This document shows positions 38,911 to 58,384 of a DNA stretch of 64,000 bases, one piece after another. Origin of the DNA: a bacterium. Its GTDB lineage: Bacteria; Zhuqueibacterota; Zhuqueibacteria; Residuimicrobiales; Krinioviventaceae. The position numbers and the translations under genes are program-made. The stretch covers positions 5,856,001 to 5,920,000 of the forward strand of contig OY843751.1 in NCBI GenBank assembly GCA_963693055.1, in the 5' to 3' direction. Each line of letters starts with the position of its first letter. Position 1 is the first letter of the stretch. The notes below the pieces were generated by a model. The model worked only from the letters and a program-made list of their open reading frames with translations. It did not search any database and was not told the origin of the DNA.

Positions 38911-41337
38911 CTAATATACCACCCGTATACCTATTGTAGGGATTGGCGGCATGGATGTGTACGGGTGTTTTACATAATAATCCACATACTTGCCATTGCG
39001 GGTATCGTACGAGATTGTCCCGAATTCTTTATAAAATAAAACATTTTTACGCGCATACAGGTTGCGAACGCCGGCGTAAAATGACATGTGCCAGGTGCTG
39101 AAATGAAACTCTTTTTCCAAACTCACATCAAGGCGATGGTACCACGGATGGCGGATTTTGCCCGGTGGTACGTCAATATAAATCACATCATAATAGTCCT
39201 GTTCCATGTCTGACCAGTTGCTGTCCCAGGGGATCCTTCGGTACGCGGAAATGTATTTATCAGCATAATAGGGCACGCCGCTGTAAATCACAAATGAGCC
39301 CGAAAACTTCCAGCCTTTGCCCAGTGGACGCGAGAAATAGGTGTCGAAACGATAGCGCTGGTCCCAGTTGGTATCGGTTTTCACACCCGAAATGGTACGA
39401 TAGGTACGGCCCACTGTTGCGGCAAACCAGCTCTGCCAGCCCATCAGTTTGGTTTTCAAAAACAGTTCCACGCCATATGCAGTACCGGGCTGTTGAATAA
39501 AATCGGGTCCAGGTCCTATCGAGCGAACCAGGTTACTGTATTGCTTGTAATAAGATGATAGAGAGATCTGGGTATTGTCTTTGGCGTATTCCACATTGGC
39601 GATCCAGTGGTTGGCGCTTTCCTGTTGCAGCGAATCATTAAGCGGAAAATAGAGCCGTAAAAAGCCCACCAGCCCGTCTTCAAGTGCCGTTGCTAATCCC
39701 TGGGTATAGCGTCCGTACGCGCCGGTCACCGACCAGTTCGGATTGATTTGATATTTCGCGTTCAGGCGCGGCTCGGGAATGACCTTACTGTTCCCCTGCC
39801 AGCGCGTTAGGCGCAATCCCCCACGCACGGTCAGGGGAGTTTCCGGCTGCCACAGCGCTTCGGCAAAACCGGTATACATGTTTGCACTGTTTGTATACGC
39901 AAAAGCATCTGTAGGCGCCTGATCAAAATAGATACCGATCTGCTCATTGTAGTCCCACAAGGGAGATACAGGCAGATAGTTGGAACCCCAACCATAATCG
40001 GGTTTGAACGTGGATTTCAACGCCCCGGCAGTCAACCGCCATGCTTTGGATACGTCCCAATCCATCTGTATATTGATGGAATGATCAGTCAGATCATTTG
40101 CAACCTCTTCTTTTTGATAAATAAAATCATCTTTTGCCTGTTGCAATTCTTCCTGGGCCCAATCCGGCACATCACCGGGAATATCCAATTCATTCTCATA
40201 TTCATAGGAATTACCGGCAACACTGGTATAGAGCTGTGTGGAAACATTTATCCTGTCTGTCACACGATAATCCCATTTCACACTTGCCAATGTGTTTTGC
40301 CATGAATAGGTATTAGCAACATGGTATTGATATTCGATGTATTCTATTTCTTCTGCACTTTCATCCTTATAAATAGTTTGGTCGCTGTCATATTCGGAGG
40401 TGTATTTATCTTTAAAGTTAAATGCCATCAACGAGATCGTATGCCTTGGGTGTGGTGTATAGGAGATCTTGCCAAACACATCGTAAAAGCCATAGGGCAC
40501 ACCGTCTCCCAGGTTCTTGAACAGGGTTTCCACATAGCTTTTTCGGCCCGAGACGATCCATTCCAGTTTGTTACCAAACCTGCCGCTGGCTGTCAAGTCC
40601 GCACCGATGATAGAGAGATCGCTGCTGATCTCGAGCGCCTTTTGCGGCGAGTGTGCTTTAACATTCAACACCGAACTGAGCCGGTTGCCATAGCGCGCGG
40701 AAAACCCGCCGGGAGAAAAGTGCACTTCGCCCACCAGGTCGGTATTGAACGCGCTGGCAAGACCAAACAGGTGAAAGGGATAATAGACCGGCACACCTTC
40801 CAACAGCACCAGATTCTGATCGGGATTGCCGCCGCGCACATTCAGCTCGTTGGTGAGCTCGTTCATGGTGATCACCCCGGGCAGGAACTGCAGTGCATTG
40901 TTTATGTCCGGCTGTAAGGTATAAGGCACGGTACGGATATCGCTTAAATTCATGCGCAGCGCGCCCGGTTCCAAAGACAATGCCACGGTTTCGTCTTTGT
41001 AGCGGTCAGATTCCACCCGCAGCTCGTTCAGCACCAGCACCTTGCGCTCCAGTTCAATATAATGGGTCCCCGCGGATATACCGTTTGCCGCGATACGTGC
41101 GGACTCGTAACCCATATATCGAATGATCAGTGTATCGTTTTCCATTTCGGAAGGCGGCATTGAAAAACGTCCGTGCGAATCTGAAATAACGCCTGCCCCG
41201 CTCTTGCTGAAAAACACATTGGCCCCGGCCAGAGTGTGGCGCGAGGCACGGTCCTGCACTACGCCGTTGATCATCTCTTTTGCGCCTGCCCACTGCAATG
41301 CCACAAAAACAAATACAACAATGATATATCTATTCAA
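38911..41337 (-). CDS. TonB-dependent receptor
   Basis: Carboxypeptidase-regulatory-like N-domain, plug LNVRGG.PDQN...EG.PVY, GGFSARYGNRLSSV, EPRL, YHRLD, NLY. Confidence 0.9.
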   Translation of the reverse strand: MNRYIIVVFVFVALQWAGAKEMINGVVQDRASRHTLAGANVFFSKSGAGVISDSHGRFSMPPSEMENDTLIIRYMGYESARIAANGISAGTHYIELERKVLVLNELRVESDRYKDETVALSLEPGALRMNLSDIRTVPYTLQPDINNALQFLPGVITMNELTNELNVRGGNPDQNLVLLEGVPVYYPFHLFGLASAFNTDLVGEVHFSPGGFSARYGNRLSSVLNVKAHSPQKALEISSDLSIIGADLTASGRFGNKLEWIVSGRKSYVETLFKNLGDGVPYGFYDVFGKISYTPHPRHTISLMAFNFKDKYTSEYDSDQTIYKDESAEEIEYIEYQYHVANTYSWQNTLASVKWDYRVTDRINVSTQLYTSVAGNSYEYENELDIPGDVPDWAQEELQQAKDDFIYQKEEVANDLTDHSINIQMDWDVSKAWRLTAGALKSTFKPDYGWGSNYLPVSPLWDYNEQIGIYFDQAPTDAFAYTNSANMYTGFAEALWQPETPLTVRGGLRLTRWQGNSKVIPEPRLNAKYQINPNWSVTGAYGRYTQGLATALEDGLVGFLRLYFPLNDSLQQESANHWIANVEYAKDNTQISLSSYYKQYSNLVRSIGPGPDFIQQPGTAYGVELFLKTKLMGWQSWFAATVGRTYRTISGVKTDTNWDQRYRFDTYFSRPLGKGWKFSGSFVIYSGVPYYADKYISAYRRIPWDSNWSDMEQDYYDVIYIDVPPGKIRHPWYHRLDVSLEKEFHFSTWHMSFYAGVRNLYARKNVLFYKEFGTISYDTRNGKYVDYYVKHPYTSMPPIPTIGIRVVY

Positions 41338-42187
41338 AGGTCAATATCTCCTTTTTAAATCTAACAATAACACTGTCCGTGATAGTATATGTCGATGAGA
41401 AATACCCAAATCCGCCACCATGAATGTTATCATTTTCTCCGGATTTCATCCCTTTACTGATATAGTCTTCAATGATGGGATCAATTTTATTCAAATCGTA
41501 ATAATATGAATGTTGATAGGGTAAAAAAGTTGAATCAAAGGCGGTTATTTTAATTTTTATTTTTTCCGTCCACTCGGATACCAAGGTATCCTTGAGACTT
41601 GCATGCTCAATAGCAGGCAGCACGGAACAGGTATCAAATGATGCAATTCCGTTATAAAAAATCCCTATTGAATACCAAAAGGCATGCTCGCTTTTACTGT
41701 AGCGAATTTGTGGTGAGACATATTCTGAAATCGAAAAATAGGGGTAGTACTTTTGCGTGAAACCTTTATATATATAATCCAGCGTGTCCGGCATATCTTC
41801 TTTTAACAAACGGAACTCGCCCGGAATATATGTATGGGCATATAACAGCACATCGTCATTAATACGCGCGGAAATATCATATCGTTCACCCGGTACAATA
41901 TCCACCTGCTCCTGTTCATCCGCGTAAACACCGGGCTGCAATTCGTCCAGCACCGCGCTCTGACCGTTACTACTCAGCGTAACCACTGCACCGCTCACAT
42001 CTTCAGGCATAGTCTCGGGCAATGAATAGCCCACCACCGCGCCAATAGGAGTAATATAGGCTGAAATTTTACTGAAGAGATAATAGGTACCCATGGAATC
42101 CGGGTCTACCAATATCGGATCATGGGTGCAGGAAAGAATACCTAACATCAGAAAGATTGTTATCTTTATTAATCGAAAATTATTCAA
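41330..42187 (-). CDS. DUF4249-like lipoprotein, tandem copy C
   Basis: TTG start after GGAG gives MNNFRLIKITIFLMLGILS-C; VSGA.V.L, PGVY, NI.GGGFGYFS. Confidence 0.75.
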   Translation of the reverse strand: MNNFRLIKITIFLMLGILSCTHDPILVDPDSMGTYYLFSKISAYITPIGAVVGYSLPETMPEDVSGAVVTLSSNGQSAVLDELQPGVYADEQEQVDIVPGERYDISARINDDVLLYAHTYIPGEFRLLKEDMPDTLDYIYKGFTQKYYPYFSISEYVSPQIRYSKSEHAFWYSIGIFYNGIASFDTCSVLPAIEHASLKDTLVSEWTEKIKIKITAFDSTFLPYQHSYYYDLNKIDPIIEDYISKGMKSGENDNIHGGGFGYFSSTYTITDSVIVRFKKEILTFE

Positions 42188-43133
42188 GTACCAACTCCAT
42201 ATCATCCAGAATGATCTTTTTAAACCGGACCACAACACTATCTGTAATAGTATGTGTTGATGAGAAATACCCAAATCCGCCACCATGAATGTTATCATTT
42301 TCTCCGGATTTCATCCCTTTACTGATATAGTTTTCAATTATACTGTTTGAATTATTCAAGTCGCTATAAGATAATGCCGGGTACGGCAGATTAGTGGAAT
42401 CATAAGCAACTATTGACAGTCTAATTTGTTCCGTCCATTCGGATACCAGAGTGTCTCTTGTGCTTGCATGCTTAAAAGCCGGTAGCATAGAATTAGAGTC
42501 AAATGAGGAAATCCCATAATAATTCATTCTGATGGAATACCAGAAAGCATTCTCGCTTTTACTGTAGCGAATTTGCGGGGAGACATACTCTGAAATCGAA
42601 AAATAGGGGTAGTACTTTTGCGTGTAACCTTTATAAATATACTCCAACGTGTCCGGCATTTCTTCTTTTAACAAACGAAATTCTCCCGGTAAATAGGTAT
42701 AGGCATACAATAGAACATCTTTATTGATACGCGCGGAAATATCATATCGCTGTCCAGGGATAATATCGACCTGCTCCTGTTCATCCCCATAAACACCGGG
42801 CTGTAATTCGTCCAGCACCGCGCTCTGGTTGTTGCCACTAAGGGTAACAACCGCGCCGCTTACATCCTCCGGCATGGTCTCGGGTAGTGAATAGCCCACC
42901 ACCGCGCCGTTCGGTGAAATATCGGGTGAAATCTGACTGATCAGATAATAGGTACCCATTGAATCCGGATCTACCAATATCGGATCATGGGTGCAGGAAA
43001 GAATACCTAACATCAGAAAGATTGTTATCTTTATTAATCGAAAATTATTCAAGTACCAACTCCATATCATCCAGAATGATCTTTTTAAACCGGACCACAA
43101 CACTATCTGTAATAGTATGTGTTGATGAGAAAT
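42105..43133. repeat. 164-bp exact direct repeat (42105-42268 = 42970-43133), period 865 bp
   Basis: Base-by-base comparison of the two gene junctions. Confidence 0.9.
42180..43052 (-). CDS. DUF4249-like lipoprotein, tandem copy B (mosaic)
   Basis: Same signal peptide as copy C; same C-terminus as copy A. Confidence 0.75.
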   Translation of the reverse strand: MNNFRLIKITIFLMLGILSCTHDPILVDPDSMGTYYLISQISPDISPNGAVVGYSLPETMPEDVSGAVVTLSGNNQSAVLDELQPGVYGDEQEQVDIIPGQRYDISARINKDVLLYAYTYLPGEFRLLKEEMPDTLEYIYKGYTQKYYPYFSISEYVSPQIRYSKSENAFWYSIRMNYYGISSFDSNSMLPAFKHASTRDTLVSEWTEQIRLSIVAYDSTNLPYPALSYSDLNNSNSIIENYISKGMKSGENDNIHGGGFGYFSSTHTITDSVVVRFKKIILDDMELVLE

Positions 43134-43932
43134 GCCCGAACCCGCCGCCCTTTATATTATCGTTATGACCTTCATTGTAGCCCCACTCTGTCATATACTT
43201 TTCAATACCGCCATTTTGGTTATTAAAATCTGTAGATGGATTTGTTTTAAATGGTAGGTATGTTGAATCAAATGCCGTTATTGAAAATACACAGGTACTG
43301 TCCCATTCGCAATATTCAGGATCGTCAAAATGCTTGTACCTTGGATAATAATTTGCAGGTAAATATGAAGATGTTTGAAATGAATCCAAAGTTTCAGATT
43401 TTTTATCTGCATGCCAGGTCAATTGATATACAAACGCATGTTCACTATTACTCCATTTTATCAAAGGTGGTTCAACCTCTTTAACAAAAAACAAAAAACT
43501 ATCAAATCTTTTATAATACAGTCCTTTTAACAAATACACCAATGTATCCGGCATGTTTTCTTTTAATACAAAAAAATCTCCCGGTAAATAGGTATGGGCA
43601 TACAACAGCACATCCTCATTAATGCGCGCGGAAATATCGTACCGCTCGCCCGGTACAACATCAACCATTTTCTGATCATCCGCATATACACCGGGTTGCA
43701 ACTCGCTCAGTACCACGTTCTGACCGTTTCCGGCAAGGGTAACCTCCGCACCGCTTACATCCTCCGGCATGGTCTCGGGCAAAGAATATCCCACCACCGC
43801 ACCGTTCGGGGAAATATTGGGCGAAATCTGACTGATGAGATAATAGGTGCCCATGGAGTCCGGGTCCACCAGTATCGGATCATGAGTGCAGGAAAGATGC
43901 AGTAAAACAAAGACTAAAATCCCTCTTTTCAT
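43045..43932 (-). CDS. DUF4249-like lipoprotein, tandem copy A
   Basis: MKRGILVFVLLHLS-C lipobox; paralogous to copies B and C. Confidence 0.75.
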   Translation of the reverse strand: MKRGILVFVLLHLSCTHDPILVDPDSMGTYYLISQISPNISPNGAVVGYSLPETMPEDVSGAEVTLAGNGQNVVLSELQPGVYADDQKMVDVVPGERYDISARINEDVLLYAHTYLPGDFFVLKENMPDTLVYLLKGLYYKRFDSFLFFVKEVEPPLIKWSNSEHAFVYQLTWHADKKSETLDSFQTSSYLPANYYPRYKHFDDPEYCEWDSTCVFSITAFDSTYLPFKTNPSTDFNNQNGGIEKYMTEWGYNEGHNDNIKGGGFGHFSSTHTITDSVVVRFKKIILDDMELVLE

Positions 43933-47229: not shown

Positions 47230-48912
47230 CTAGCTGGTATATAAAAACCGTTTTATCTTTTGTGTTGGTGTTTTTTCAAACGGTTCTGTTTGCTCAATAA
47301 GCTTGTTCAGTCTTGAAAAAGCGGTAACCTTTTCGTTTACTGCATTTCGGATCTTTTTAAGCAATTCCTGAATGTTCTTTTTCATCTCTAATTCACTTTC
47401 ACAGGCGAAATCGGTATCAATCGCATCGTAATTCAGGTGCACGCGTGCTGCCAGTTTACCGCGATCATTAAACACCAGAGATTCCAGCACATACTCGCAC
47501 TGGTTGATCAGGGTTTCTACTTCTTCCGGGTAAATATTTTCACCACTGGGACCAATAATCACATTCTTGGAGCGGCCCTTGATATAGACAAAATCATCCT
47601 TGTCGAAAATTGCCAAATCACCCGTCTTGAACCAACCGTCCGGAGTAAATACCTGTTTGGTCAGTTCAGGATCTTTAAAATAACCGAGCATAATATTGGG
47701 CCCCTTGGCCTGTAATTCACCTTCTATACGATAAGGATCCTGCGAGGCAATCCGAAGACTCACTCCGGGCCCCGCAGGTCCGGTAGAGCCAATGCGGGTA
47801 ACATCGGGTGATGCACCGGCAAGCAGGGGTGAGGTCTCGGTCAATCCATATCCAATAGCATAAGGAAAGCCGCTGTCTTTTAAAAAGATCTCTACGTCCG
47901 TAGCCAGTTTGGCACCGCCAATACCGAAAAACCGCATACGTCCGCCAAAAGATTTGTACAACTTTTTACCGGCAATTTTGTGCAACTGTTTGCGCATTAA
48001 AGGATTTTGATACAACGTCCGCATCAATTTAGACTTTTGGAACTGGGGCAATATTCTGTTTTTAAATATTTTTTCAATAACCAATGGAACGCTTAGCATA
48101 ACCGTGGGACGAATTTTTGCCATAGCATCCAGCAAAAGCCGCGGAGATGGGGGTTTATCAAAATAATTTATCAATCCGCCGCCGTAAAAAACCACAAGCA
48201 TACCCACTGTGCATTCATAGGTATGAGAAAGCGGTAAAATAGACAAAGTTTGATCAGTAGGTTGAATGGCAAAAATACCGGTAGAAATGATAGTATTCGA
48301 AACAAGATTTTTATGAGAAAGCATAACTCCTTTTGAATGACCGGTTGTGCCGGATGTATAAATAATACATGCAAGATCATCTTCTTCAATCTCGGTATCT
48401 CCCCTGCCCGCCATTTTCAAGGCCGCGTTTTTTAATCGGGTAAAATCTTTTGATCGCTCTTTGAGCATATCACGCACACCATCTTTGGTGGTTTTGGGAT
48501 TTATTTTTGATAACGTTTCCATCAAAAACACATTATCTACAGATACCGGTTCTTCTTGCTGAATTTTATCATACTGTCGCTCTGAAATAAAAAGAGCTTT
48601 ACAGCCGGAATGACGGAGAATATGTCTCACCTGGTCAGGCTGAAAATCGGGCAAAATGGGTACAGCCACCGCACCCATGGTCGTTACAGCAAAATAGGTA
48701 ATGACCCAATTGGGCCGGTTTTCGCTCAAAATAGCAACACGGTCACCTTTTTGGATACCGTTGTTTTTCAGGATAGCAGACAGGTGCTTGACCTGTTCAC
48801 CCACTTGTTCATAGGTAATAGGTGCATCCCCAATGAGGGTCATGGCAGAATACGCTCCATGCCTGGAGATAACATAGTCTAAAAAGGATTTTAAGGTAAG
48901 TTTTGATAACAC
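47230..48912 (-). CDS. Long-chain fatty acid--CoA ligase (AMP-binding)
   Basis: YTSGTTGHSKG, GYGLTETSP, GWFKTGD, GRSKN, GENIYPEE, KTPTQKIKR. Confidence 0.92.
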   Translation of the reverse strand: MLSKLTLKSFLDYVISRHGAYSAMTLIGDAPITYEQVGEQVKHLSAILKNNGIQKGDRVAILSENRPNWVITYFAVTTMGAVAVPILPDFQPDQVRHILRHSGCKALFISERQYDKIQQEEPVSVDNVFLMETLSKINPKTTKDGVRDMLKERSKDFTRLKNAALKMAGRGDTEIEEDDLACIIYTSGTTGHSKGVMLSHKNLVSNTIISTGIFAIQPTDQTLSILPLSHTYECTVGMLVVFYGGGLINYFDKPPSPRLLLDAMAKIRPTVMLSVPLVIEKIFKNRILPQFQKSKLMRTLYQNPLMRKQLHKIAGKKLYKSFGGRMRFFGIGGAKLATDVEIFLKDSGFPYAIGYGLTETSPLLAGASPDVTRIGSTGPAGPGVSLRIASQDPYRIEGELQAKGPNIMLGYFKDPELTKQVFTPDGWFKTGDLAIFDKDDFVYIKGRSKNVIIGPSGENIYPEEVETLINQCEYVLESLVFNDRGKLAARVHLNYDAIDTDFACESELEMKKNIQELLKKIRNAVNEKVTAFSRLNKLIEQTEPFEKTPTQKIKRFLYTS

Positions 48913-48990
48913 AACAAGCTCCTTGTTTTCAGTAGAATAAAATATCACATCTGAAAACAAGAAGCAAGTTTTTATTACAAATACAATTTG

Positions 48991-50529
48991 TTATTGATTA
49001 TTTTCCTTACGGTGGAACGCTTTATGGTAACCTGTAATAATGGCTTGATACAAAAAGCCGGGTTTGTCACCGGTTGTACCCAGATAAATATGAACAATCA
49101 TAAACAGCACAAACATCACTGCAACAAAATAGTGCATGAGTGCAATAAAACCCAATCCACCAATTCCCAATAAACCAATGGGTGCAAGTTCCGGGAACAT
49201 GAGCAGTAAACCGGTTATAATAATAACCGGGAACAAAAAGAACATCACAACCAGATAACTAAAACGCTGCAATGGATTGAATTTATGCTTTACAGAACAG
49301 TGATAGGGTTTATCTTCACCTCTGAATATTCCATATACATAATACCGGGCCTGAATCAATAAGCGTTGGTGTACATTATGGGCACCCGGAATATAGTGTT
49401 TTATATTTCCATCAAAAAAGTTCATTGCCAGATAAAAAGCAAATGCAAGCATTAACAAGCGCGCTGCATTATTGTGAACATTTACAGCAACTGCAAAGCT
49501 TAATATGGATCCTTCATTAGCAAAATGCAGGCTGAAACCGGTAAATATCAATATAATAAATAAAATCGCATTCGTGGCGTGCCAGATACGAATATTCAAT
49601 TTATATATATATTCAGAATGCAGTTCGTAATCGGGGCCATTTTTCTTAATATTACGTGTAAAATAAATACGTAATGCACCATGGGCTAAAACACCTGCAA
49701 ACGCGGCAAGAAACATTAAAATGATTAAATTATCAATAAAAGTTAACCGGGTTGCGCCAATCACATATGCATTCTGAAACAAATAATAATTCATAATACG
49801 ATGCAACTGATCATCTTTAGATGCAGTTGCAGATTGATACAGCTTGTGGGTCAATATGGAATTCTGAGAGTGGCAGGAAACGCATTTATGCTGCGCTTCG
49901 TCATCTGCTACAATGTGATGTACATTTGCGTCTTCTGCAGGCGTATGACATTCCACACAACGAACTGAGCGCCAGTGGATTTCACGACTTGGTAAAAATG
50001 AATGAGAGAGATCAAGCTTTGATGCATCTTTACCTGATAAATATGCATAAATTGCAGAATCAACATGACAATTGTAACAATTGTCATTATAATATTTTAT
50101 TTCATGTTCCAGATCCTGGGTCAAAGAATCAAAGTTGGCTCTGTGAATATCATGACATTTAAAACAGTTAAAATCCTGGATCTTTTCAGCATGGTAGCTA
50201 AGTTCATACGCTTCGTGTTGTTCTTCAAATTCTTCACCATGACAATCAAGACACATAGGCGTAGAAGCTGCATCAAGCAAATGTGGAAATTCTTCAAAAC
50301 CCCCTTCTTCCGATTCAATATGACACATGGTACATTCCATCTCACCATGCGTAGCTTTTTGATATACTTCAACAGGCAGATATAAATCAAGAATCTCACC
50401 TTTTTCTGTTACCGGCTCAATACTGTTATCCGCATGACATGCCTGACACAGTTCATCATATTGAGCAAATGTAACCGAAAAAGAGAGTAGCAGCAGCAAA
50501 GTAGTAAATATTATTTTTCTTGAAATCAT
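48991..50529 (-). CDS. Heptaheme cytochrome c fused to cytochrome b (CbcA-CbcB-like)
   Basis: 7 CxxCH motifs, then a TM cytochrome b domain (RIWH, FSLH, VH, FNPLQ, LMH, VHIYL). Confidence 0.85.
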   Translation of the reverse strand: MISRKIIFTTLLLLLSFSVTFAQYDELCQACHADNSIEPVTEKGEILDLYLPVEVYQKATHGEMECTMCHIESEEGGFEEFPHLLDAASTPMCLDCHGEEFEEQHEAYELSYHAEKIQDFNCFKCHDIHRANFDSLTQDLEHEIKYYNDNCYNCHVDSAIYAYLSGKDASKLDLSHSFLPSREIHWRSVRCVECHTPAEDANVHHIVADDEAQHKCVSCHSQNSILTHKLYQSATASKDDQLHRIMNYYLFQNAYVIGATRLTFIDNLIILMFLAAFAGVLAHGALRIYFTRNIKKNGPDYELHSEYIYKLNIRIWHATNAILFIILIFTGFSLHFANEGSILSFAVAVNVHNNAARLLMLAFAFYLAMNFFDGNIKHYIPGAHNVHQRLLIQARYYVYGIFRGEDKPYHCSVKHKFNPLQRFSYLVVMFFLFPVIIITGLLLMFPELAPIGLLGIGGLGFIALMHYFVAVMFVLFMIVHIYLGTTGDKPGFLYQAIITGYHKAFHRKENNQ

Positions 50530-50545
50530 TTTCTCTTCTTTTGGT

Positions 50546-50563
50546 TTGTGAATTATTTTACAA
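50546..50563. promoter_or_regulatory. Rex-like operator
   Basis: TTGTGAA-TTAT-TTTACAA, one mismatch to TTGTGAANNNNTTCACAA. Confidence 0.55.
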
Positions 50564-50964
50564 CTTAAAATTTAACCGTTTTATCCATAATAATAAACAA
50601 AAAAACAACTTGATTGATTATGTACAGCAAAAAGCGGCATTTCTGCCATTACTAATAAGGGTTTGGGAATAATTGCAAGAAAAGCTCAAGCGCATTATGC
50701 AGATTTTCTATTTTTTTTCAAAAAATGGTATTGCGTCTGTTTAATGCTTTCTTATATTGAATATAAAGGACCTGCTTTTGTGAAAAAAAGAACAAGTGTA
50801 ACCATATAGAGCCTTGTGTTGGGACCCATCATGTTTTAATTGTGGTTCTCTAACACTATTCAAATCCTTTTGACTTTCTTTTACGGATCGCCAAGACATT
50901 CTCGTCCTGTATCAAAGCTGGCTGACTTGATATCAATTCCCAATAAACATAAACCAATGACGAG

Positions 50965-53766
50965 ATGTGCATTATGGAAAATTCCACAAAATTTGTCCGC
51001 GTTGTTCTTGTTTCATTGCTTATGCTCCTCATGTTCCACCCATCTTTTTCAGCAAAAGATGAAGATTGCCTCATGTGTCATGCCGATGCAACCCTTACTA
51101 TGGAAAAAAACGGTAAAACAATTTCCGTTTTTGTTCCGGAAAACACATTAAAGGGTACCGTGCATGAAGAAAATGGATGCGTATCGTGCCATATTGACGC
51201 AGATGTTGAAGATTTTCCGCATGATACTCCGCTTGAAAAGGTGGATTGCAACATGTGTCATGATGATATTGGTGAAGATATGGCCCTTAGCACCCATGGC
51301 ATTGCACATGCAAAAGGTGATAAAGACGCACCCGTCTGTATCGATTGTCATAACAAGCATACGATATTAAAAAATACAAACCCAAAATCTTCTACATATG
51401 TTATGAACATCCCTATGCTATGTGGACAATGTCACAGTGAAGACAGCGAAGTTGCGCGCCGGCACAGAATCACCCAGTCTGACATTATTCAAAACTATAC
51501 CATGTCCATCCATGGAGAAGGTTTGTTCCAGGGTGGACTCATTGTTACCGCCGTTTGTACCAACTGCCATACCTCTCACAATGTGTTACCGCATACAAAC
51601 CCCAAATCCTCCATACATAGAGATAATATTGCAGGTACCTGTATGCAGTGCCACGCGCAGATTGAACGCGTACACCAAAAAGTGATCAAAGGTGAATTGT
51701 GGGAAAAACAACCCAACGCCATACCCGCCTGTGTGGATTGTCATTCACCTCACAAAATACGCCGTGTTTTTTACGCGGAAGAATTTACAGATCATTATTG
51801 CATGAATTGCCACGAAAAACAAGACCTTACCCGCAAACTGAAAGACGGAACCATAGATTCATTATATGTAGATGTGAGCGACTTGCAGCATTCCATTCAC
51901 GGACAAAATATTTCCTGTATCAAATGTCATACAAACGTCAGCAGGGGTAAACGTCCTGTTTGTCAAGATTCCGGCCCGGTAGATTGTTCCATTTGTCATG
52001 TTGAACAAGCTGACAATTTCTATTCCAGCATCCATGGCGAATTGTTTGCCAAAGGCGATGAAAATGCCCCTAGCTGTACCAACTGTCATGGTGGCCACAA
52101 GATCCTTGCCGGAGATAATTTGGAATCTCCAACCTTTACTCGTAATATTCCGGCTCTTTGCGCGCAATGTCACAGAGAAGGAGAAAAAGCCGCGGTAAGG
52201 TATACCGGCAAAGAAACCCAGGTTATAGAACATTACACCATGAGTATTCACGGCAAAGGTTTGTTTGACAGCGGACTCATGGTATCTGCCGTTTGCAGCG
52301 ATTGCCATACACCTCACAATGCTCTGCCAGCTAGCGATCCTGAATCAAGCGTGCACGATACCAATGTGGGCAAAACCTGCTCAAAATGTCACTTGGGTAT
52401 TTACGAGACATTTAAATCCTCCATTCACAGCCCCCTGGTATCCAAAACAGATAAAAAGCTACCTGCATGTAACGATTGCCACAAATCGCACGAAATTGAA
52501 CGTGTAGACCGTGACGATTTTCGTGCGCAGATACTGGGACAGTGCGGTCACTGTCATGAGGATGTTACAGAGACCTATTTTGAAACCTATCACGGCAAAG
52601 TTTCAAAACTGGGTTCAGAAAAAGCAGCCAAATGTTCCGACTGTCACGGTTCTCATAATATATTGCCGCCAACGAATATCGCTTCAACACTCAGTCGTGA
52701 CAATATCATAGAAACCTGTAAACAATGCCATCCCAATTCAAACCGCAAATTTACCGGCTATCTTACACATGCAACACATCATAATCGCGACAAATACCCG
52801 GCATTGTTTTACACGTTCTGGTTTATGACCTTTCTGGTTATAGGCGTTTTTGCTTTTTTCGGAATCCATACCATATTGTGGATCCCCCGGTCAATTCGAG
52901 AACGTATACGTATACACAAACATCTGTCCAAACACCCCAAACGCTGGATTGTTCGTTTTGGCAGGCTACCCAGAACACTGCATTTAATGGTCATTGTAAG
53001 CTTTTTGGGCCTTGCCTTAACCGGAATGAGCTTGAAATTTGCCGGTTACGAGTGGGCCTATAATATAAGCCAGTTCTTTGGCGGAGCCGAAGGCGCCGGC
53101 ATTGTTCATAGAATTTGTGCAATCATCACATTTCTCTATTTTATTCTCCACTTTGTATACATTGGTCGTGAAGCTAAAAAGAAAGGCATGAATTATTGGA
53201 AATTCATGTTTAACAAAAACGGAATGATTCCCACAAAACAGGATTTTATAGACTTTTTTCATACCATTCTCTGGTTCCTGGGTCGAAAAAAAGCTCCCCA
53301 TTATGGCAGGTGGACTTATTGGGAAAAATTTGATTACTTTGCTGTATTTTGGGGTGTTGCGGTTATTGGTTCAACGGGACTTGTGCTCTGGTTCCCGGAA
53401 TTCTTTACTCGTTTTTTACCAGGCTACCTGATCAATGTAGCAACAATCATTCATAGCGATGAAGCCTTGTTAGCAACCGGATTTATTTTTACAATCCACT
53501 TTTTCAACACGCATTTCAGACCCCAAAAATTCCCTATGGACCCGGTTATATTTACCGGCAAAGTTCCATACGAAGAATGGAAACTGGAAAGACCCAAAGA
53601 ATATCAGCAATTAAAAGAAACCGGAGAACTGGAAGGTTTAACGCGTGAAACTGAACCTCCCAGATGGTTAAATATTCTGTCCCGCATTTTTGGTTTCTTT
53701 TTCCTCTTATTAGGCCTGAGCCTGGTGGTTATGATTATTTGGGCAATGCTGACACAATATAAATAA
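50965..53766 (+). CDS. 19-heme cytochrome c fused to cytochrome b (expanded CbcL-like); start may be 50974
   Basis: 19 CxxCH motifs; C-terminal cytochrome b with YWEKFDYFAVFWG, IHSDEALLA, HFFN.H.RP.KFPMD. Confidence 0.9.
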   Translation: MCIMENSTKFVRVVLVSLLMLLMFHPSFSAKDEDCLMCHADATLTMEKNGKTISVFVPENTLKGTVHEENGCVSCHIDADVEDFPHDTPLEKVDCNMCHDDIGEDMALSTHGIAHAKGDKDAPVCIDCHNKHTILKNTNPKSSTYVMNIPMLCGQCHSEDSEVARRHRITQSDIIQNYTMSIHGEGLFQGGLIVTAVCTNCHTSHNVLPHTNPKSSIHRDNIAGTCMQCHAQIERVHQKVIKGELWEKQPNAIPACVDCHSPHKIRRVFYAEEFTDHYCMNCHEKQDLTRKLKDGTIDSLYVDVSDLQHSIHGQNISCIKCHTNVSRGKRPVCQDSGPVDCSICHVEQADNFYSSIHGELFAKGDENAPSCTNCHGGHKILAGDNLESPTFTRNIPALCAQCHREGEKAAVRYTGKETQVIEHYTMSIHGKGLFDSGLMVSAVCSDCHTPHNALPASDPESSVHDTNVGKTCSKCHLGIYETFKSSIHSPLVSKTDKKLPACNDCHKSHEIERVDRDDFRAQILGQCGHCHEDVTETYFETYHGKVSKLGSEKAAKCSDCHGSHNILPPTNIASTLSRDNIIETCKQCHPNSNRKFTGYLTHATHHNRDKYPALFYTFWFMTFLVIGVFAFFGIHTILWIPRSIRERIRIHKHLSKHPKRWIVRFGRLPRTLHLMVIVSFLGLALTGMSLKFAGYEWAYNISQFFGGAEGAGIVHRICAIITFLYFILHFVYIGREAKKKGMNYWKFMFNKNGMIPTKQDFIDFFHTILWFLGRKKAPHYGRWTYWEKFDYFAVFWGVAVIGSTGLVLWFPEFFTRFLPGYLINVATIIHSDEALLATGFIFTIHFFNTHFRPQKFPMDPVIFTGKVPYEEWKLERPKEYQQLKETGELEGLTRETEPPRWLNILSRIFGFFFLLLGLSLVVMIIWAMLTQYK

Positions 53767-53800
53767 AAAAAAGGCAAAGGATAACTCCTTTGCCTTTTTA
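53765..53800. terminator. Bidirectional terminator
   Basis: AAAAAGGCAAAGGA-TAAC-TCCTTTGCCTTTTT between convergent genes. Confidence 0.85.
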
Positions 53801-53820
53801 TAACATAAAACTCTTGGCAG

Positions 53821-54906
53821 CTAGAACGCTTCAACCACCAAAGCATAAATAGACATGGTTCCCCACTCATCAAAGCCCAGATCCAACCGGGCATTGATTT
53901 TCTCTCTTGTATCAAACATGAATCGAATTCCCGCACCATAACTGACTTTAAAATCCCGCAGGTGAAAATGATCAACCTTGCATGCAACATCTCCCAATCC
54001 GGCAAAAAACACACCTCCAAAACGCCAGAACAATGGATACCTATACTCGGTTTGCATGGTAATCATATTATTATCCCGATACCGGCCAAAATAATAACCT
54101 CGCATCCAATAAGATCCGCCAAGCAGACCCATCATCTGAAATGGGGGATTCCCATCTATAAAGATGTTATAGCTGTGAAAGGCAAGCACGTGGTTCCTGA
54201 ATATGGGCATATAATGGCGCAGATCCAGGGTATACATTGTAAAATCAAAATCACTTCCAATAGCTGAACCAAAAGAGACCGCATAAAACTGATGATAATG
54301 ACCACTCGTTGGAAAATAAGTGTGATTACGCGTATCCCAGTTTACAAGAATACCCAAACCCGATGCCGCCCCGTCACCACTCCCAGGTATTGTTTGATAT
54401 TGCAATATACCATTGGGATCTGTTTCTTTTAAAGCAATATACTCAAACTGGTAACGGATACCGGTATACAATCCCGGTAATATCCGCTTTTGGATGTTGG
54501 TAAAGGTTCGAATTAACGAGGGGGTAAAATCTTCTTCACTTTCATCAGGAGTATTGCTGCCTGCACCCCAGTATTTATCAGGATATTTATAATAATTATA
54601 GGTGCCGTTTACAAGCCATGCTTCATTATTAAAATAAAGCTCCGGTTGAATGGCAAATAACAATTGTTTTCTCTGTGTAAACGTCAGTGCAACTTTGATG
54701 TTTGATGGGCGAACATCCGTCTTGCTGTCTGCTGCTCTAAATGAATAAACACTCCCCACACCCGCAGCTATATCCGTTTCCGGAGTAAAATAAGCATAAG
54801 GAAGAGCAACCAAACTGTTTCTGTTTTGATCCTGCGCATGGGCAAGAACAAAAAGCAGCAATAACAAAATTGCGCTCAATCGAATTTTAAACATACATTT
54901 TTTCAT
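53821..54906 (-). CDS. BamA/TamA (Omp85) barrel-only outer-membrane protein
   Basis: LP...FTPET, DTRN, LGG...MRGY..GRYRD, GAGIRF, C-terminal EAF; start refined. Confidence 0.85.
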   Translation of the reverse strand: MKKCMFKIRLSAILLLLLFVLAHAQDQNRNSLVALPYAYFTPETDIAAGVGSVYSFRAADSKTDVRPSNIKVALTFTQRKQLLFAIQPELYFNNEAWLVNGTYNYYKYPDKYWGAGSNTPDESEEDFTPSLIRTFTNIQKRILPGLYTGIRYQFEYIALKETDPNGILQYQTIPGSGDGAASGLGILVNWDTRNHTYFPTSGHYHQFYAVSFGSAIGSDFDFTMYTLDLRHYMPIFRNHVLAFHSYNIFIDGNPPFQMMGLLGGSYWMRGYYFGRYRDNNMITMQTEYRYPLFWRFGGVFFAGLGDVACKVDHFHLRDFKVSYGAGIRFMFDTREKINARLDLGFDEWGTMSIYALVVEAF

Positions 54907-54949
54907 GTTTACAATGTATAAATATCTCGAAACTATTACAATCATTATA

Positions 54950-55140
54950 TAAAAAAACCCCGCCAAAAGTATAAGCGGGGTTATTAAACTATAAGCATCC
55001 GGATTACCTGGTGCTAACAAGCTTCACCGGAGGCTCTTATTATCGTACTAATAATAATAAGATCACCTCCTTTCAACAGGGCATCCGTATTCACATCGAG
55101 TCGCTCCCTGTCAGCAACCCAACGTAGCGTGAATTAGGTA
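54950..55140 (-). ncRNA. Candidate structured RNA: pseudoknot, sequestered extended SD and terminator
   Basis: Manual folding; G.U pairs favour the minus strand; ends in CCCCGC..GCGGGG followed by a U-run. Confidence 0.55.
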
Positions 55141-55184
55141 GCTTTGCTATATTTTAAAACCATTTCCTTATTCTATTTATTCCG

Positions 55185-56687
55185 TTATATCGGTGGAGAA
55201 GAGTGACATTCGCTGCAATTTAGATATTGCCAGTCTCCATCAATATCAACCGGATGAACAAAATCAAGTGCGTCACGGGTTGAAGTAAACTGAACATCAC
55301 CTTCTTTACCCTGTGCCGTAATTAAATGACAATCATTACATGTCTTCGATATCACATCACCATCATCACTTTCATGCAGATCATCATGACACCTGAAACA
55401 ACCATTCGATGTCATATGACCTATATGGTTAGGATAGCCTTCCCAGGTCACTTTCATTTCCGGAAAAATGTTTTGCGAAAAAGCTTCCTGAACACCAATG
55501 ACAGATTTTAATAACCTGCCTTTATTTAAAATGGCATCGGGATAATTTTCTTCATAAAATGTTGTTAAATACTCTTTAATACCGTCCATTGCCAGCTCTG
55601 TTGATTCATATTCCTGTAAACATGCTTCAATAGCAGCCTGTTTTACCATTGGCAACGATGCATCTATTTGACCACTGGCAATTGCAATATTGATAAAACT
55701 AGATGGATCATTATAAATGTGACTGGGTCGGTTATGACAGTCAATACAATCCATTGTGCGTCTTTCAATATATTCCGCATCCTCGTCCAGAGGTTCATCG
55801 GTATTGTTATACGTTGTAACCTTGCCTGTGACTTTATTGGTCAGAATAACCTGAGGTATAGTTTCTCTTTTTTCATCTGTAGTGATATACTCTATTTTAA
55901 TATCGGGATTAATATGCCAGTGAATACCTGTCGATTGCCCCATACTCGGGTTTCCGCCACCGGTGTTCATCAACATGTCAATCTCCCAGCGCGTATTCTC
56001 CTCATCGGCAAGATAATAATATTCCATGCGCTGCTGCTTGCCATAAATTTTTTGCGGCCAGTGACACTCTTCGCAGGTCTCTCTTGCGGGTCTCAAATTC
56101 TCAACAGGCGTGGGTATGGGTTTGGGATATTTGTTTGTTAGGGTTGCATACACCTGGTATAATCCACTCAATTTAGATTTTACATACCAGTTCGCCCCTT
56201 CTCCCACATGACATTCTGCGCAGGTAACCCGGGCATGTGGTGAATTATGATAGGCGGTATATTCGGGTATCATTAAATTGTGGCACAAAGTCCCGCAAAA
56301 GGTTACAGACTCTGTATAATGATAAGCTTCATAGCTGCCCAATGCAGATAGAAACAGAAAAACCAGAGTACAAATTGTAAATATGATTGTAGCGTTTCTA
56401 TGTCTGGGATTATTCAGGTCAAGTATTGGAAAATCATCCGATACTTTTTTACCCAACTTTTTCTCTCTTCTTGATTTTCGCAACATTCCAATGGGAATCA
56501 ATAAAAGCCCCAAAATAATAAATGCAGGTACTATCATAAAAATGACAATCCCCACATAGGCTTTATCTAATGATGATAACGAAGATAATACATAAAGAAA
56601 AACAAACATAAATGTTGCGATGAGCGCAATTGCGGCACCAGTGTAGGAAATTATGTTGTAAAAGGACCGTGGTAAATGAAGTTTCAT
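55185..56687 (-). CDS. NapC/NirT family heptaheme membrane cytochrome c (ImcH-like)
   Basis: 3 N-terminal TM helices; CGTLCH plus 6 CxxCH; SPHARV.C.ECH, LRPARETCE.CHWP, DC.DCHNRP.H. Confidence 0.88.
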   Translation of the reverse strand: MKLHLPRSFYNIISYTGAAIALIATFMFVFLYVLSSLSSLDKAYVGIVIFMIVPAFIILGLLLIPIGMLRKSRREKKLGKKVSDDFPILDLNNPRHRNATIIFTICTLVFLFLSALGSYEAYHYTESVTFCGTLCHNLMIPEYTAYHNSPHARVTCAECHVGEGANWYVKSKLSGLYQVYATLTNKYPKPIPTPVENLRPARETCEECHWPQKIYGKQQRMEYYYLADEENTRWEIDMLMNTGGGNPSMGQSTGIHWHINPDIKIEYITTDEKRETIPQVILTNKVTGKVTTYNNTDEPLDEDAEYIERRTMDCIDCHNRPSHIYNDPSSFINIAIASGQIDASLPMVKQAAIEACLQEYESTELAMDGIKEYLTTFYEENYPDAILNKGRLLKSVIGVQEAFSQNIFPEMKVTWEGYPNHIGHMTSNGCFRCHDDLHESDDGDVISKTCNDCHLITAQGKEGDVQFTSTRDALDFVHPVDIDGDWQYLNCSECHSSPPI

Positions 56688-56704
56688 TGTTCGCCCTTTC
56701 AAAT

Positions 56705-56722
56705 TGGTTATATATTTAACAA
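56705..56722. promoter_or_regulatory. Rex-like operator
   Basis: Minus strand TTGTTAA-ATAT-ATAACCA, two mismatches to TTGTTAANNNNTTAACAA. Confidence 0.45.
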
Positions 56723-56843
56723 TATAGATTTTAAACATACAACGCAACACTTATTACATATTAATTTTACACGGTTCCGCAATCTGCTTGGCAATTTCTA
56801 TTCATCTTTTTTTAAAAAATGTTTTTACAATCATCAAATCAAA

Positions 56844-57260
56844 CTATCTCTTGAATAAACGAACTATTAGTGCATCCAGGCTATATTTCCCTGGCCCCAT
56901 AAGTAAGGTTGCAGCAGAAATGATTGCAAATGTTAACGGTAACTCTTTTCTACCAAAAGGATCGTCAGCATGGGCACCAAAAGCAGCAACCAGCATTGTA
57001 AATATTACAAACAACAACGCCGGTCTGAAAAACAAACCCAATATGATGAAAATACCACCTAAAAATTCACTAAAAGCCGCCGCATATGCAAAAAATTCAG
57101 GAAATGGAAAGCCCAAATCGGCCACCCCTCCGGCAAAACCTTCTATATTACCAAAAACTTTTTTATACCCATGCATAGCCATCATTGATCCTAACCAGAT
57201 TCTCAACAAGAGTATAGATACATCTGCGAGTGTTACTTTTGTATTTAATATTTTGAGCAT
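56844..57260 (-). CDS. DoxX family membrane protein
   Basis: LLLR...G..M..HG..K, E.LGG....LG...R, GPGKYSLD. Confidence 0.9.
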   Translation of the reverse strand: MLKILNTKVTLADVSILLLRIWLGSMMAMHGYKKVFGNIEGFAGGVADLGFPFPEFFAYAAAFSEFLGGIFIILGLFFRPALLFVIFTMLVAAFGAHADDPFGRKELPLTFAIISAATLLMGPGKYSLDALIVRLFKR

Positions 57261-57346
57261 AAATCACCTCTTTTGAATAACATTTCCGTCAAAACGGAAC
57301 ACCTTTTATTTTTACGAGTTTAATATAATGACAGTCTAACTAAAAA

Positions 57347-58384
57347 GTGATGACCATGAACAATACATTGTTTGAATATATGATATCTACACCCCATCCC
57401 GCAGTAACAGATGGAGAAACAATCGGGTATTCACGCAAAGGTCAACCTATTCAGGCTTTTCGTTTGGGTTCGGGTTCACTGAATATCAGCCTTATTGGCG
57501 GATTACATGCAGATGAGCCCGTGGGTCCCCGATTTTTACGGCATTTCACCACTTTTTTACGTATGCTGCCAAACAATCATATGCTATTAACAAAATTTAC
57601 GTGGTGGATCATCCCGCATGGGAATCCGGATGGAGAATTAAACAATGCGATTTGGACTGCAAAAGGTAATGGCTTTTACCAACTGTCCAACTATTTATTA
57701 TCTGCTGTGCGAGAAGCTCCGGGCGATGATATGGAGTTTGGCTTTCCTATAGATCAGCACGATAAACACGCGCGTCCTGAGAATAAAGCGATTTATCGCT
57801 GGTGGGAAACTGCGGAAAATCCATTTCAGCTTCACATGTCTTGTCATGGCATGCTGTTTGGTGAAGGCCCCTGGTTTTTAATTGACTCAACATGGATCAG
57901 CAGAAGCAAACCAATCATAGAATCATGCACCGCGCTTACGGAAGAGCTGGGTTATCGGTTAAATGACAGTAATCGCCAAGGCGAAAAGGGCTTTACGCGA
58001 ATTACCAAAGGCTTTAGTACACGCCCCGATTCCAAATACATGAAAGAATATTTTATGGATTTGAACGAGCCGGAAATGGCTGCAAAATTCCGTCCCAGTT
58101 CCATGGAAGCGATCCGCTCCATTAGCGGAGATACCCTTACACTGGTTTCTGAAACACCGCTTTTTCTTGTACCACAAACATTTGATTCTAACATCAGCCA
58201 GACAAGCATAACACAAAAATGGCGCGAACAATTTGACATTTGGCGCAGAGATGGCAATCCGGAACGTATCGAAAAAGAAGCAAATATGCTGGGAATTAAA
58301 CCCATGGCGGTTAAAGATCAGATGAAGATCATTTTCTCGTTTCTGTTTTCCGGTCTATCCTTAATTGAACCCATAGAAATTTGA
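57347..58384 (+). CDS. M14 family zinc carboxypeptidase-like protein
   Basis: IGYSRKG.PI, GLHADE, P..NPDG, S.HG. Confidence 0.8.
   Translation: MMTMNNTLFEYMISTPHPAVTDGETIGYSRKGQPIQAFRLGSGSLNISLIGGLHADEPVGPRFLRHFTTFLRMLPNNHMLLTKFTWWIIPHGNPDGELNNAIWTAKGNGFYQLSNYLLSAVREAPGDDMEFGFPIDQHDKHARPENKAIYRWWETAENPFQLHMSCHGMLFGEGPWFLIDSTWISRSKPIIESCTALTEELGYRLNDSNRQGEKGFTRITKGFSTRPDSKYMKEYFMDLNEPEMAAKFRPSSMEAIRSISGDTLTLVSETPLFLVPQTFDSNISQTSITQKWREQFDIWRRDGNPERIEKEANMLGIKPMAVKDQMKIIFSFLFSGLSLIEPIEI

Follow-up and report, generated by a model that had tools for sequence, protein, structure and literature searches.

The window analysed here is a stretch of 64,000 nucleotides (positions 5,856,001 to 5,920,000 of contig OY843751.1, assembly GCA_963693055.1), and between its positions 48991 and 56687 it carries three genes for multihaem cytochromes, a gene of the Omp85 superfamily and a candidate structured RNA. 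The host bacterium is placed in candidate division KSB1, and its genome is a single contig of 6.54-Mb with 39% G+C and a completeness rating of 100%. A contig from one public run was identical to the window across positions 48500-57500 and possibly is the source of this very DNA. The genes and the RNA are, by window position:

48991..50529, minus strand: gene 1, a CbcA-CbcB-type fusion of 512 amino acids (aa) with signal peptide, 7 c-haems, a CbcA-type anchor helix with His and a four-helix cytochrome b
50965..53766, plus strand: gene 2, a 19-haem CbcL-clade protein of 933 aa with an FdnI-like six-helix cytochrome b
53821..54906, minus strand: Omp85-superfamily barrel gene between genes 2 and 3, likely start 54906
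54951..55135, minus strand: stand-alone structured RNA candidate between genes 2 and 3
55185..56687, minus strand: gene 3, an ImcH orthologue of 500 aa with 3 transmembrane (TM) helices, one CxxxCH and 6 CxxCH

An earlier interpretation made from the letters alone (the sequence-only reading) had described a compact cluster of three multihaem genes with 33 haem-c motifs. A six-frame count of open reading frames (ORFs) and motifs over the window confirmed the three genes at this position and assigned 7 CxxCH to gene 1, 19 CxxCH to gene 2, and 6 CxxCH and one CxxxCH to gene 3, so that the total holds as 32 canonical motifs and one atypical. Genes 1 and 2 were each assigned a prokaryotic cytochrome b domain; in gene 3 the domain is of NapC/NirT type, and three hydrophobic helices stand at the N-terminus. 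The Omp85-family gene and the structured RNA intervene between genes 2 and 3. The start of the Omp85 gene was set at 54906 because a longer ORF from 55020 would cross the terminator of the RNA. Since the strands along the cluster run -, +, -, - (gene 1, gene 2, Omp85 gene, gene 3), the three cytochrome genes do not form one operon.

The ImcH family has been defined by one CX3CH motif, six CX2CH motifs and three helices (PMC6295460). In gene 3 three N-terminal TM helices are followed by a NapC/NirT-like region, with the CX3CH near the membrane and six CX2CH beyond it. The motif positions (131/156/205/314/430/450/491) lie within five residues of those of ImcH of Geobacter sulfurreducens (GSU3259; 132/156/205/311/428/448/486), and the length of ~500 aa and the three N-terminal TM helices are likewise shared (PMC4251993, PMC6295460); no difference in architecture was seen, and the host belongs to KSB1. 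Gene 3 is also 49% identical to an ImcH of Oryzomonas (Geobacterales). The likeness to ImcH that had been proposed is thus borne out, and gene 3 is, as judged by haem positions, helices and identity, an ImcH orthologue, for which a role at high acceptor potential is predicted only. A sequence search of the PDB returned no solved ImcH structure, giving distant matches to FdnI, NrfB and one unnamed cytochrome c only. The family has been listed for Caldithrix and Ignavibacteria (PMC6295460), and the best 80 of at least 585 relatives of gene 3 found by genome scan include proteins from Calditrichota, Ignavibacteria, Bacteroidales, KSB1 and Zixibacteria.

The assignment of gene 2 to CbcL was upheld by identity, profile search and tree placement. 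The G. sulfurreducens sequence itself did not serve as reference; the CbcL set was drawn from 61 Oryzomonas-family genomes, in which proteins with the nine-haem spacing of GSU0274 were taken as CbcL. Gene 2 was 43-49% identical to these 9-haem proteins across its last ~400 residues, and a 33-sequence CbcL profile matched it alone among 12,586 ORFs (E-value 5e-188). In a 22-row tree it grouped with Geobacterales CbcL at 100/100 support, the 11-17-haem paralogues falling outside, and the same split was recovered at 93 in an 82-row FastTree; it did not group with FdnI. As in the CbcL/MtrH/MtoC family, the N-terminal multihaem c domain is joined in one polypeptide with an FdnI/HydC-like cytochrome b of six helices, whose membrane His 635, 673, 715, 830, 845 and 850 are conserved; a simple hydropathy scan gave five helices, and the alignment to CbcL spans the whole domain. 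The nine haems of GSU0274 are not matched by the 19 of gene 2, and no 19-haem form has been assayed in the parts of the literature covered. Nonetheless, the published family spans 3-23 haems (PMC6295460), and Table S2 of the same paper lists 19-haem proteins in Caldithrix abyssi, a KSB1 genome, Ignavibacteria and Marinifilaceae, the spacing of the 19 motifs in gene 2 being almost that of the rows for Caldithrix, KSB1 and Marinifilaceae. By this combined sequence evidence gene 2 belongs to the CbcL clade, as a form with 19 haems.

Gene 1 had been likened to CbcBA (GSU0593-0594; 10.1101/2021.04.15.440034), and this likeness is borne out for the architecture. The protein aligns colinearly with split CbcA and CbcB of the Oryzomonas family and of Bacteroidales; all seven haem motifs fall in register, as do five membrane His (one of the anchor helix and four of the cytochrome b). 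It shares with CbcBA the seven-haem domain, the anchor helix with His and the four-helix PhsC-like cytochrome b, whereas it is one polypeptide in place of two genes, lacks a ~75-residue insert before haem 7, and has a Rex box in place of an adjoining BccR-like sigma-54 regulator. In the tree the cytochrome b of gene 1 and Geobacterales CbcB fall on separate branches, with long-branch warnings. CbcA-CbcB fusions were found in four Geobacterales genomes as well, and have been mentioned for Chloroflexi, with cbcBA clusters in Caldithrix and Bacteroidetes (10.1101/2021.04.15.440034). Gene 1 is here classed as a CbcBA-type fusion and not as a CbcBA orthologue.

We propose that ImcH, the CbcL-clade protein and the CbcA-CbcB fusion would act as separate menaquinol:cytochrome c oxidoreductases. 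Electrons would leave them for periplasmic cytochromes and travel on to multihaem/beta-barrel conduits, the genes of which lie outside this cluster. Outward electron transfer of this kind is fairly likely, because the host appears able to make menaquinone and has three cytochrome/beta-barrel clusters at other loci. The genes menB and menD were above their cut-offs and three haem-c assembly genes were present, and the futalosine menaquinone family was not found in the host genome; by its gene content the host makes menaquinone by the classical route. In the first candidate conduit (L008:6968-15423) genes with 20, 28 and 10 haems are followed by one for a 512-aa protein that was modelled from a 29-row alignment as a 22-strand barrel, with a predicted local distance difference test (pLDDT) score of 84; an AlphaFold model from the single sequence (pLDDT 32) was unusable. 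Three or more CxxCH lie directly upstream at 28 of 29 loci of barrel homologues, the remaining locus being without upstream DNA, and this unnamed barrel family occurs in 47 of 125 genomes of the class. The second candidate (L002:8137-13384) has a 46%-identical paralogue of the barrel behind a 49-haem gene. The third (L001:8327-12644) consists of 9-haem, rhodanese-domain, porin-like and 12-haem genes, carries two Rex boxes, and presumably resembles Geobacter extHIJKL.

The three proteins could instead be membrane subunits of other complexes, such as NrfH or the cytochrome b of formate dehydrogenase, hydrogenase or thiosulfate reductase, and distant matches to NrfH, FdnI and PhsC-type profiles do occur. 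However, the matches to NrfH, FdnI, HyaC and PhsC-type profiles all fall under curated cut-offs, no molybdopterin oxidoreductase was found in the host genome, its sole NiFe large subunit belongs to the complex-I-like group, and the NrfA cut-off was passed by none of 17 other host proteins with at least four CxxCH. The sequence-only reading had offered such membership in a genome devoid of outward conduits as the outcome that would count against it; what was found are matches below cut-offs and three candidate conduits. Judged by these profiles, membership in other complexes is largely refuted and can be given hardly any credence.

A second alternative, that menaquinol is oxidised for periplasmic sinks only (the octahaem reductase, sulfur compounds or haem storage) and the outer membrane is left uncrossed, is unlikely. 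It is consistent with the presence of an octahaem reductase that is paired with a dedicated cytochrome b and preceded by a Rex box, and with the best NCBIfam match of gene 1, which is to thiosulfate reductase cytochrome b, below the cut-off. Yet that dedicated partner already serves the octahaem enzyme, no molybdopterin reductase was found, and the three cytochrome/barrel clusters, one of them with Rex boxes, speak against it. Electrons might also flow inward, with Fe(II), minerals or partner cells as donors and menaquinone as the acceptor, in the way put forward for MtoC; homologues of CbcL and MtoC are found in Fe(II) oxidisers, and the genome does encode oxygen reductases. This we regard as more improbable still, since ImcH has been reported only in reducers (PMC6295460), and derepression of Rex targets at high NADH would fit the disposal of electrons.

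Several observations nevertheless weigh against outward transfer by the three enzymes as proposed. The cytochrome b of gene 1 joins Bacteroidales proteins and E. coli YdhU, apart from Geobacterales CbcB (Shimodaira-Hasegawa-like approximate likelihood ratio test 91, with long-branch warnings); the second, octahaem-linked cytochrome b scores as well as gene 1 against the CbcB profile (E-values 1.5e-40 and 3.4e-41), and the CbcA profile scores gene 2 above gene 1. The best fold matches of the barrel model are outer-membrane ushers and porins, with template modelling scores of at most 0.43, and MtrB was not among the matches listed. The genome holds other possible sinks, namely alternative complex III with an aa3-type oxidase, a bd oxidase and the octahaem protein, which is of the tetrathionate reductase family. 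Homologues of CbcL (and MtoC) occur in Fe(II) oxidisers too (PMC6295460), and for Caldithrix abyssi, which has a 19-haem protein and ImcH, the available text describes nitrate respiration and fermentation with no mention of 'ferric' or 'iron reduction'. Quinol oxidation, the outward direction and an extracellular acceptor are all inferred.

Other haem proteins of the genome are recorded here as separate observations. A NapC/NirT tetrahaem domain is fused to a formylglycine-generating-enzyme-like domain at L004:9030-10640, and a cytochrome bd subunit I-like domain to an 8-haem c domain at L012:9644-13383, where a membrane partner gene is also found. Cytochromes with 5 and 9 haems (L009:8346-10283 and L011:8408-11104) end in FlgD/Por-type C-terminal sorting domains and are candidates for secretion.

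The sequence-only reading had also noted shared operator-like sites. These have the form of the Rex consensus, TTGTGAA-N4-TTCACAA (PMC5317091):

50546..50563: Rex-type palindrome with 1 mismatch, 17 bp before the start of gene 1, kept in the sister genome G001
50778..50795: weak Rex-like site with 3 mismatches, upstream of gene 2, rank 26, kept in the sister genome
56688..56843: junction that is the site of an extra block in the sister genome, with a weak Rex-like site at 56705 (rank 100)

A matrix was built on seven sites that lie outside the window and stem from the same consensus scan, so that the ranking is not fully independent; among 763,960 intergenic positions it placed the sites of genes 1, 2 and 3 at ranks 6, 26 and 100. 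The sites before the three genes are not of equal strength, that of gene 1 being strong and those of genes 2 and 3 weak. The other top untrained matches lay before rex, the porin gene of the cytochrome cluster and the octahaem reductase, and the motif also precedes an NfnAB-like pair and a group-4 hydrogenase operon. The host rex gene passes three NCBIfam cut-offs. With rex and predicted sites before redox genes both present, a Rex regulon is indicated, strongly only for gene 1, and the fusion gene would be induced when NADH accumulates, Rex replacing the BccR of Geobacter. The literature search returned no report joining Rex with multihaem extracellular electron transfer.

In G. sulfurreducens ImcH, CbcL and CbcBA serve high, medium and low acceptor potentials, respectively (10.1101/2021.04.15.440034), and the three genes of the window might likewise form one co-regulated module graded by potential. 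All three architectures are present, each gene is preceded by a Rex-like site, and the Rex box of the fusion would fit induction at high NADH. Against this stand the divergent layout, the weakness of two of the three sites, the 19 haems of gene 2 where CbcL has nine, and the want of an adjacent BccR-like regulator. Furthermore, within the order to which the window's genome belongs the full-length fusion occurs in 4 of 41 genomes and the full trio in only 2, and in the two other fusion carriers the fusion was not near imcH in the stretches examined. A single graded module is, on balance, doubtful.

The neighbourhoods of imcH were compared in the best 80 loci, with up to 10 kb on each side (43 of them 20 kb or longer). 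A CbcL-family gene was found in 34 of the 80, CbcB in 5 and both in 2 (L041, L086); a Rieske-type cytochrome b was present in 25, and at least two other module types in 23. The Omp85 gene was considered as a cytochrome conduit and rejected, as no Omp85-type gene adjoined imcH in any of the 80 related loci and a link to cytochromes was absent across them. In the Oryzomonas family imcH lay within 1.5 kb of cbcL in 7 of 30 cbcL loci, and in D. soudanensis the two are seven locus tags apart (PMC4914508). Hence the adjacency that had been contrasted with the separate loci of Geobacter is not special. Nor is the lineage one in which such genes were not known, given that ImcH, 19-haem CbcL homologues and cbcBA clusters have been published for Caldithrix, KSB1, Ignavibacteria and Bacteroidetes. 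As a neighbourhood the cluster is loose and often reshuffled; it is neither a single operon nor a single complex, and it is an ordinary example of known families in a common arrangement, of low novelty.

In the sister genome a block of genes for a Rieske protein, a cytochrome b, a 9-haem protein and a DUF2339 protein stands directly before imcH (L206:5413-9843), and a related contig has 5,052 additional bases at the junction 56688..56843. The Rieske, cytochrome b and DUF2339 proteins of the block have no match in the window's genome. Since similar blocks precede imcH in other relatives, the simpler reading is that the block was lost from the window's genome. Elsewhere in the window (41330-43932, minus strand) three tandem paralogous genes for lipoprotein-like proteins have near-identical N-terminal stretches, and the 3' end of one recurs in the next.

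The RNA candidate, of ~185 nt (55135-54951 on the minus strand), first came to notice in two relatives, in the DNA that precedes their fusion gene. Its parts in the window are:

54951..55135, minus strand: a 13-bp hairpin, a hairpin sequestering the Shine-Dalgarno sequence, an alternative helix and an intrinsic terminator
55110-55106, minus strand: loop CAGGG, complementary to CCCTG at 55081-55077
55014..55058, minus strand: predicted frame of 14 codons, ATT..TAG, behind the Shine-Dalgarno sequence

In an alignment of 26 sequences, two-sided changes affect every one of the 13 pairs of the 5' hairpin and 3 of 12 in the hairpin that hides the Shine-Dalgarno sequence. The helix between the loop and the downstream strand was 98% paired with zero covariation, so that a pseudoknot is possible. 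With the Shine-Dalgarno region held open, the strand that otherwise masks it pairs by inspection with a downstream strand in 26/26. The Shine-Dalgarno sequence is complementary to the 3' end of the host 16S RNA, and the frame of 13 or 14 codons behind it starts at ATT or ATA in all 26. A pattern that stops at 'AT' was applied to metagenomes, which lie beyond the training sequences, and matched 46 loci, some of which repeat genome matches; 40 of 41 distinct loci had 13-14 codons, closed by TAG, TAA or TGA, with an ATG start in 3. The frame was kept in a mean of 2.1 of 39 shuffled sequences and in 38 observed ones, a contrast that is inflated by relatedness; the other two frames, too, meet stop codons early and at fixed points. 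Of the 21 loci parsed in Calditrichota, 20 had 13-14 codons and one had 12 (8 loci were unparsed). The predicted peptides, 13-14 aa long, are polar and poorly conserved. Promoter-like hexamers and a terminator were seen by eye in most copies, that of the window being without a clear promoter; a sigma-70 scan was at chance level (34 vs 29.8), and the terminator, which was missed by the scan, was read from sequence and fold. As a conserved structure the putative RNA is well supported.

BLAST found the RNA in 28 of the 125 class genomes, and a covariance model built from 22 of these copies found it in 39, with one copy each. The model matched 29 of 86 Calditrichota genomes, with one strong match each and a second, partial match in one genome. 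Among 40 assorted genomes only Calditrichota, a single KSB1 record and a record without title gave strong matches, and in the 30 searched genomes other than those of KSB1, Calditrichota and the untitled carrier no match was better than an E-value of 0.02. The RNA pattern had no match in viral contigs. In Rfam no family was matched at its gathering score, the weak E-value matches being far below it. A 6S RNA or tmRNA was considered and rejected, as the genome's own 6S-like RNA and tmRNA lie elsewhere; the 6S-like RNA (G000:C1:2762068-2762248) is itself below the Rfam gathering score (36.4 vs 46.4 bits). No description of the RNA was met with among the papers listed by the literature searches or in the passages covered of a KSB1 survey (PMC9012183); surveys of noncoding RNA (PMC8632094, PMC6429828) may bear on the point. 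The RNA is apparently undescribed.

A cis-acting riboswitch or leader was rejected as well, because over 81 loci no consistent same-strand family lay downstream. The downstream gene was on the same strand in 48, on the opposite strand in 27 and absent in 6, and 146 neighbours fell into 96 families, the largest of which had 9 members. The largest family is that of a ferritin-like gene, with the RNA directly upstream of it in nine loci (L224, L248, L253, L261, L271, L275, L315, L318, L328). The RNA is an independent small gene that lies by chance within the cytochrome cluster. The csrA gene was present in 32 of 39 carriers and 33 of 86 non-carriers, which as kin are not independent, and many loops are without GGA; a link to CsrA is only a lead.

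The closest published mechanism is the control of timP by a pseudoknot and a switch (PMC13000454). The mRNAs of the toxins timP and tisB (PMC7708055, PMC11228461) likewise carry a pseudoknot at the 5' end, ahead of a sequestered Shine-Dalgarno sequence that a long-range helix possibly frees. The RNA described here differs in its frame of 13-14 codons, poorly conserved and non-hydrophobic, in starting mostly at AUU, AUC or AUA, and in its occurrence in nearly always one copy per genome; the likeness drawn here is one of mechanism. Type I toxins are marked by a hydrophobic ORF and an antisense antitoxin RNA; the short peptides here are polar, and no search for an antitoxin was made. The most likely role of the RNA would be engagement of the ribosome through its micro-frame. 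The start codon AUU is that of infC, where it is sensitive to initiation factor 3 (IF3). Going further, we tentatively suggest, as a reading that is quite possible, a new class of stand-alone ribosome-engaging RNA in KSB1 and Calditrichota, in which access to a full-length Shine-Dalgarno sequence and to a frame of 13-14 codons started at AUH would be gated by the 5' domain, folded as a pseudoknot, and by a helix that switches between two states. Such an RNA would bind or sense the initiation machinery, by IF3-type control of the start codon or by sequestration of 30S subunits, and would not serve to make a peptide.

With respect to the cytochromes, the present analysis extends the range of likely extracellular respirers by a complete genome of KSB1. 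A further candidate case is that of Rex, and not BccR, as the regulator shared by a CbcBA-type enzyme and a porin-cytochrome cluster, a link that is modestly new and incremental. As to the RNA, if the suggestion made here is true, a conserved small gene that is nearly always single-copy in two phyla and carries an AUH-started micro-frame would represent a new route of translational regulation.

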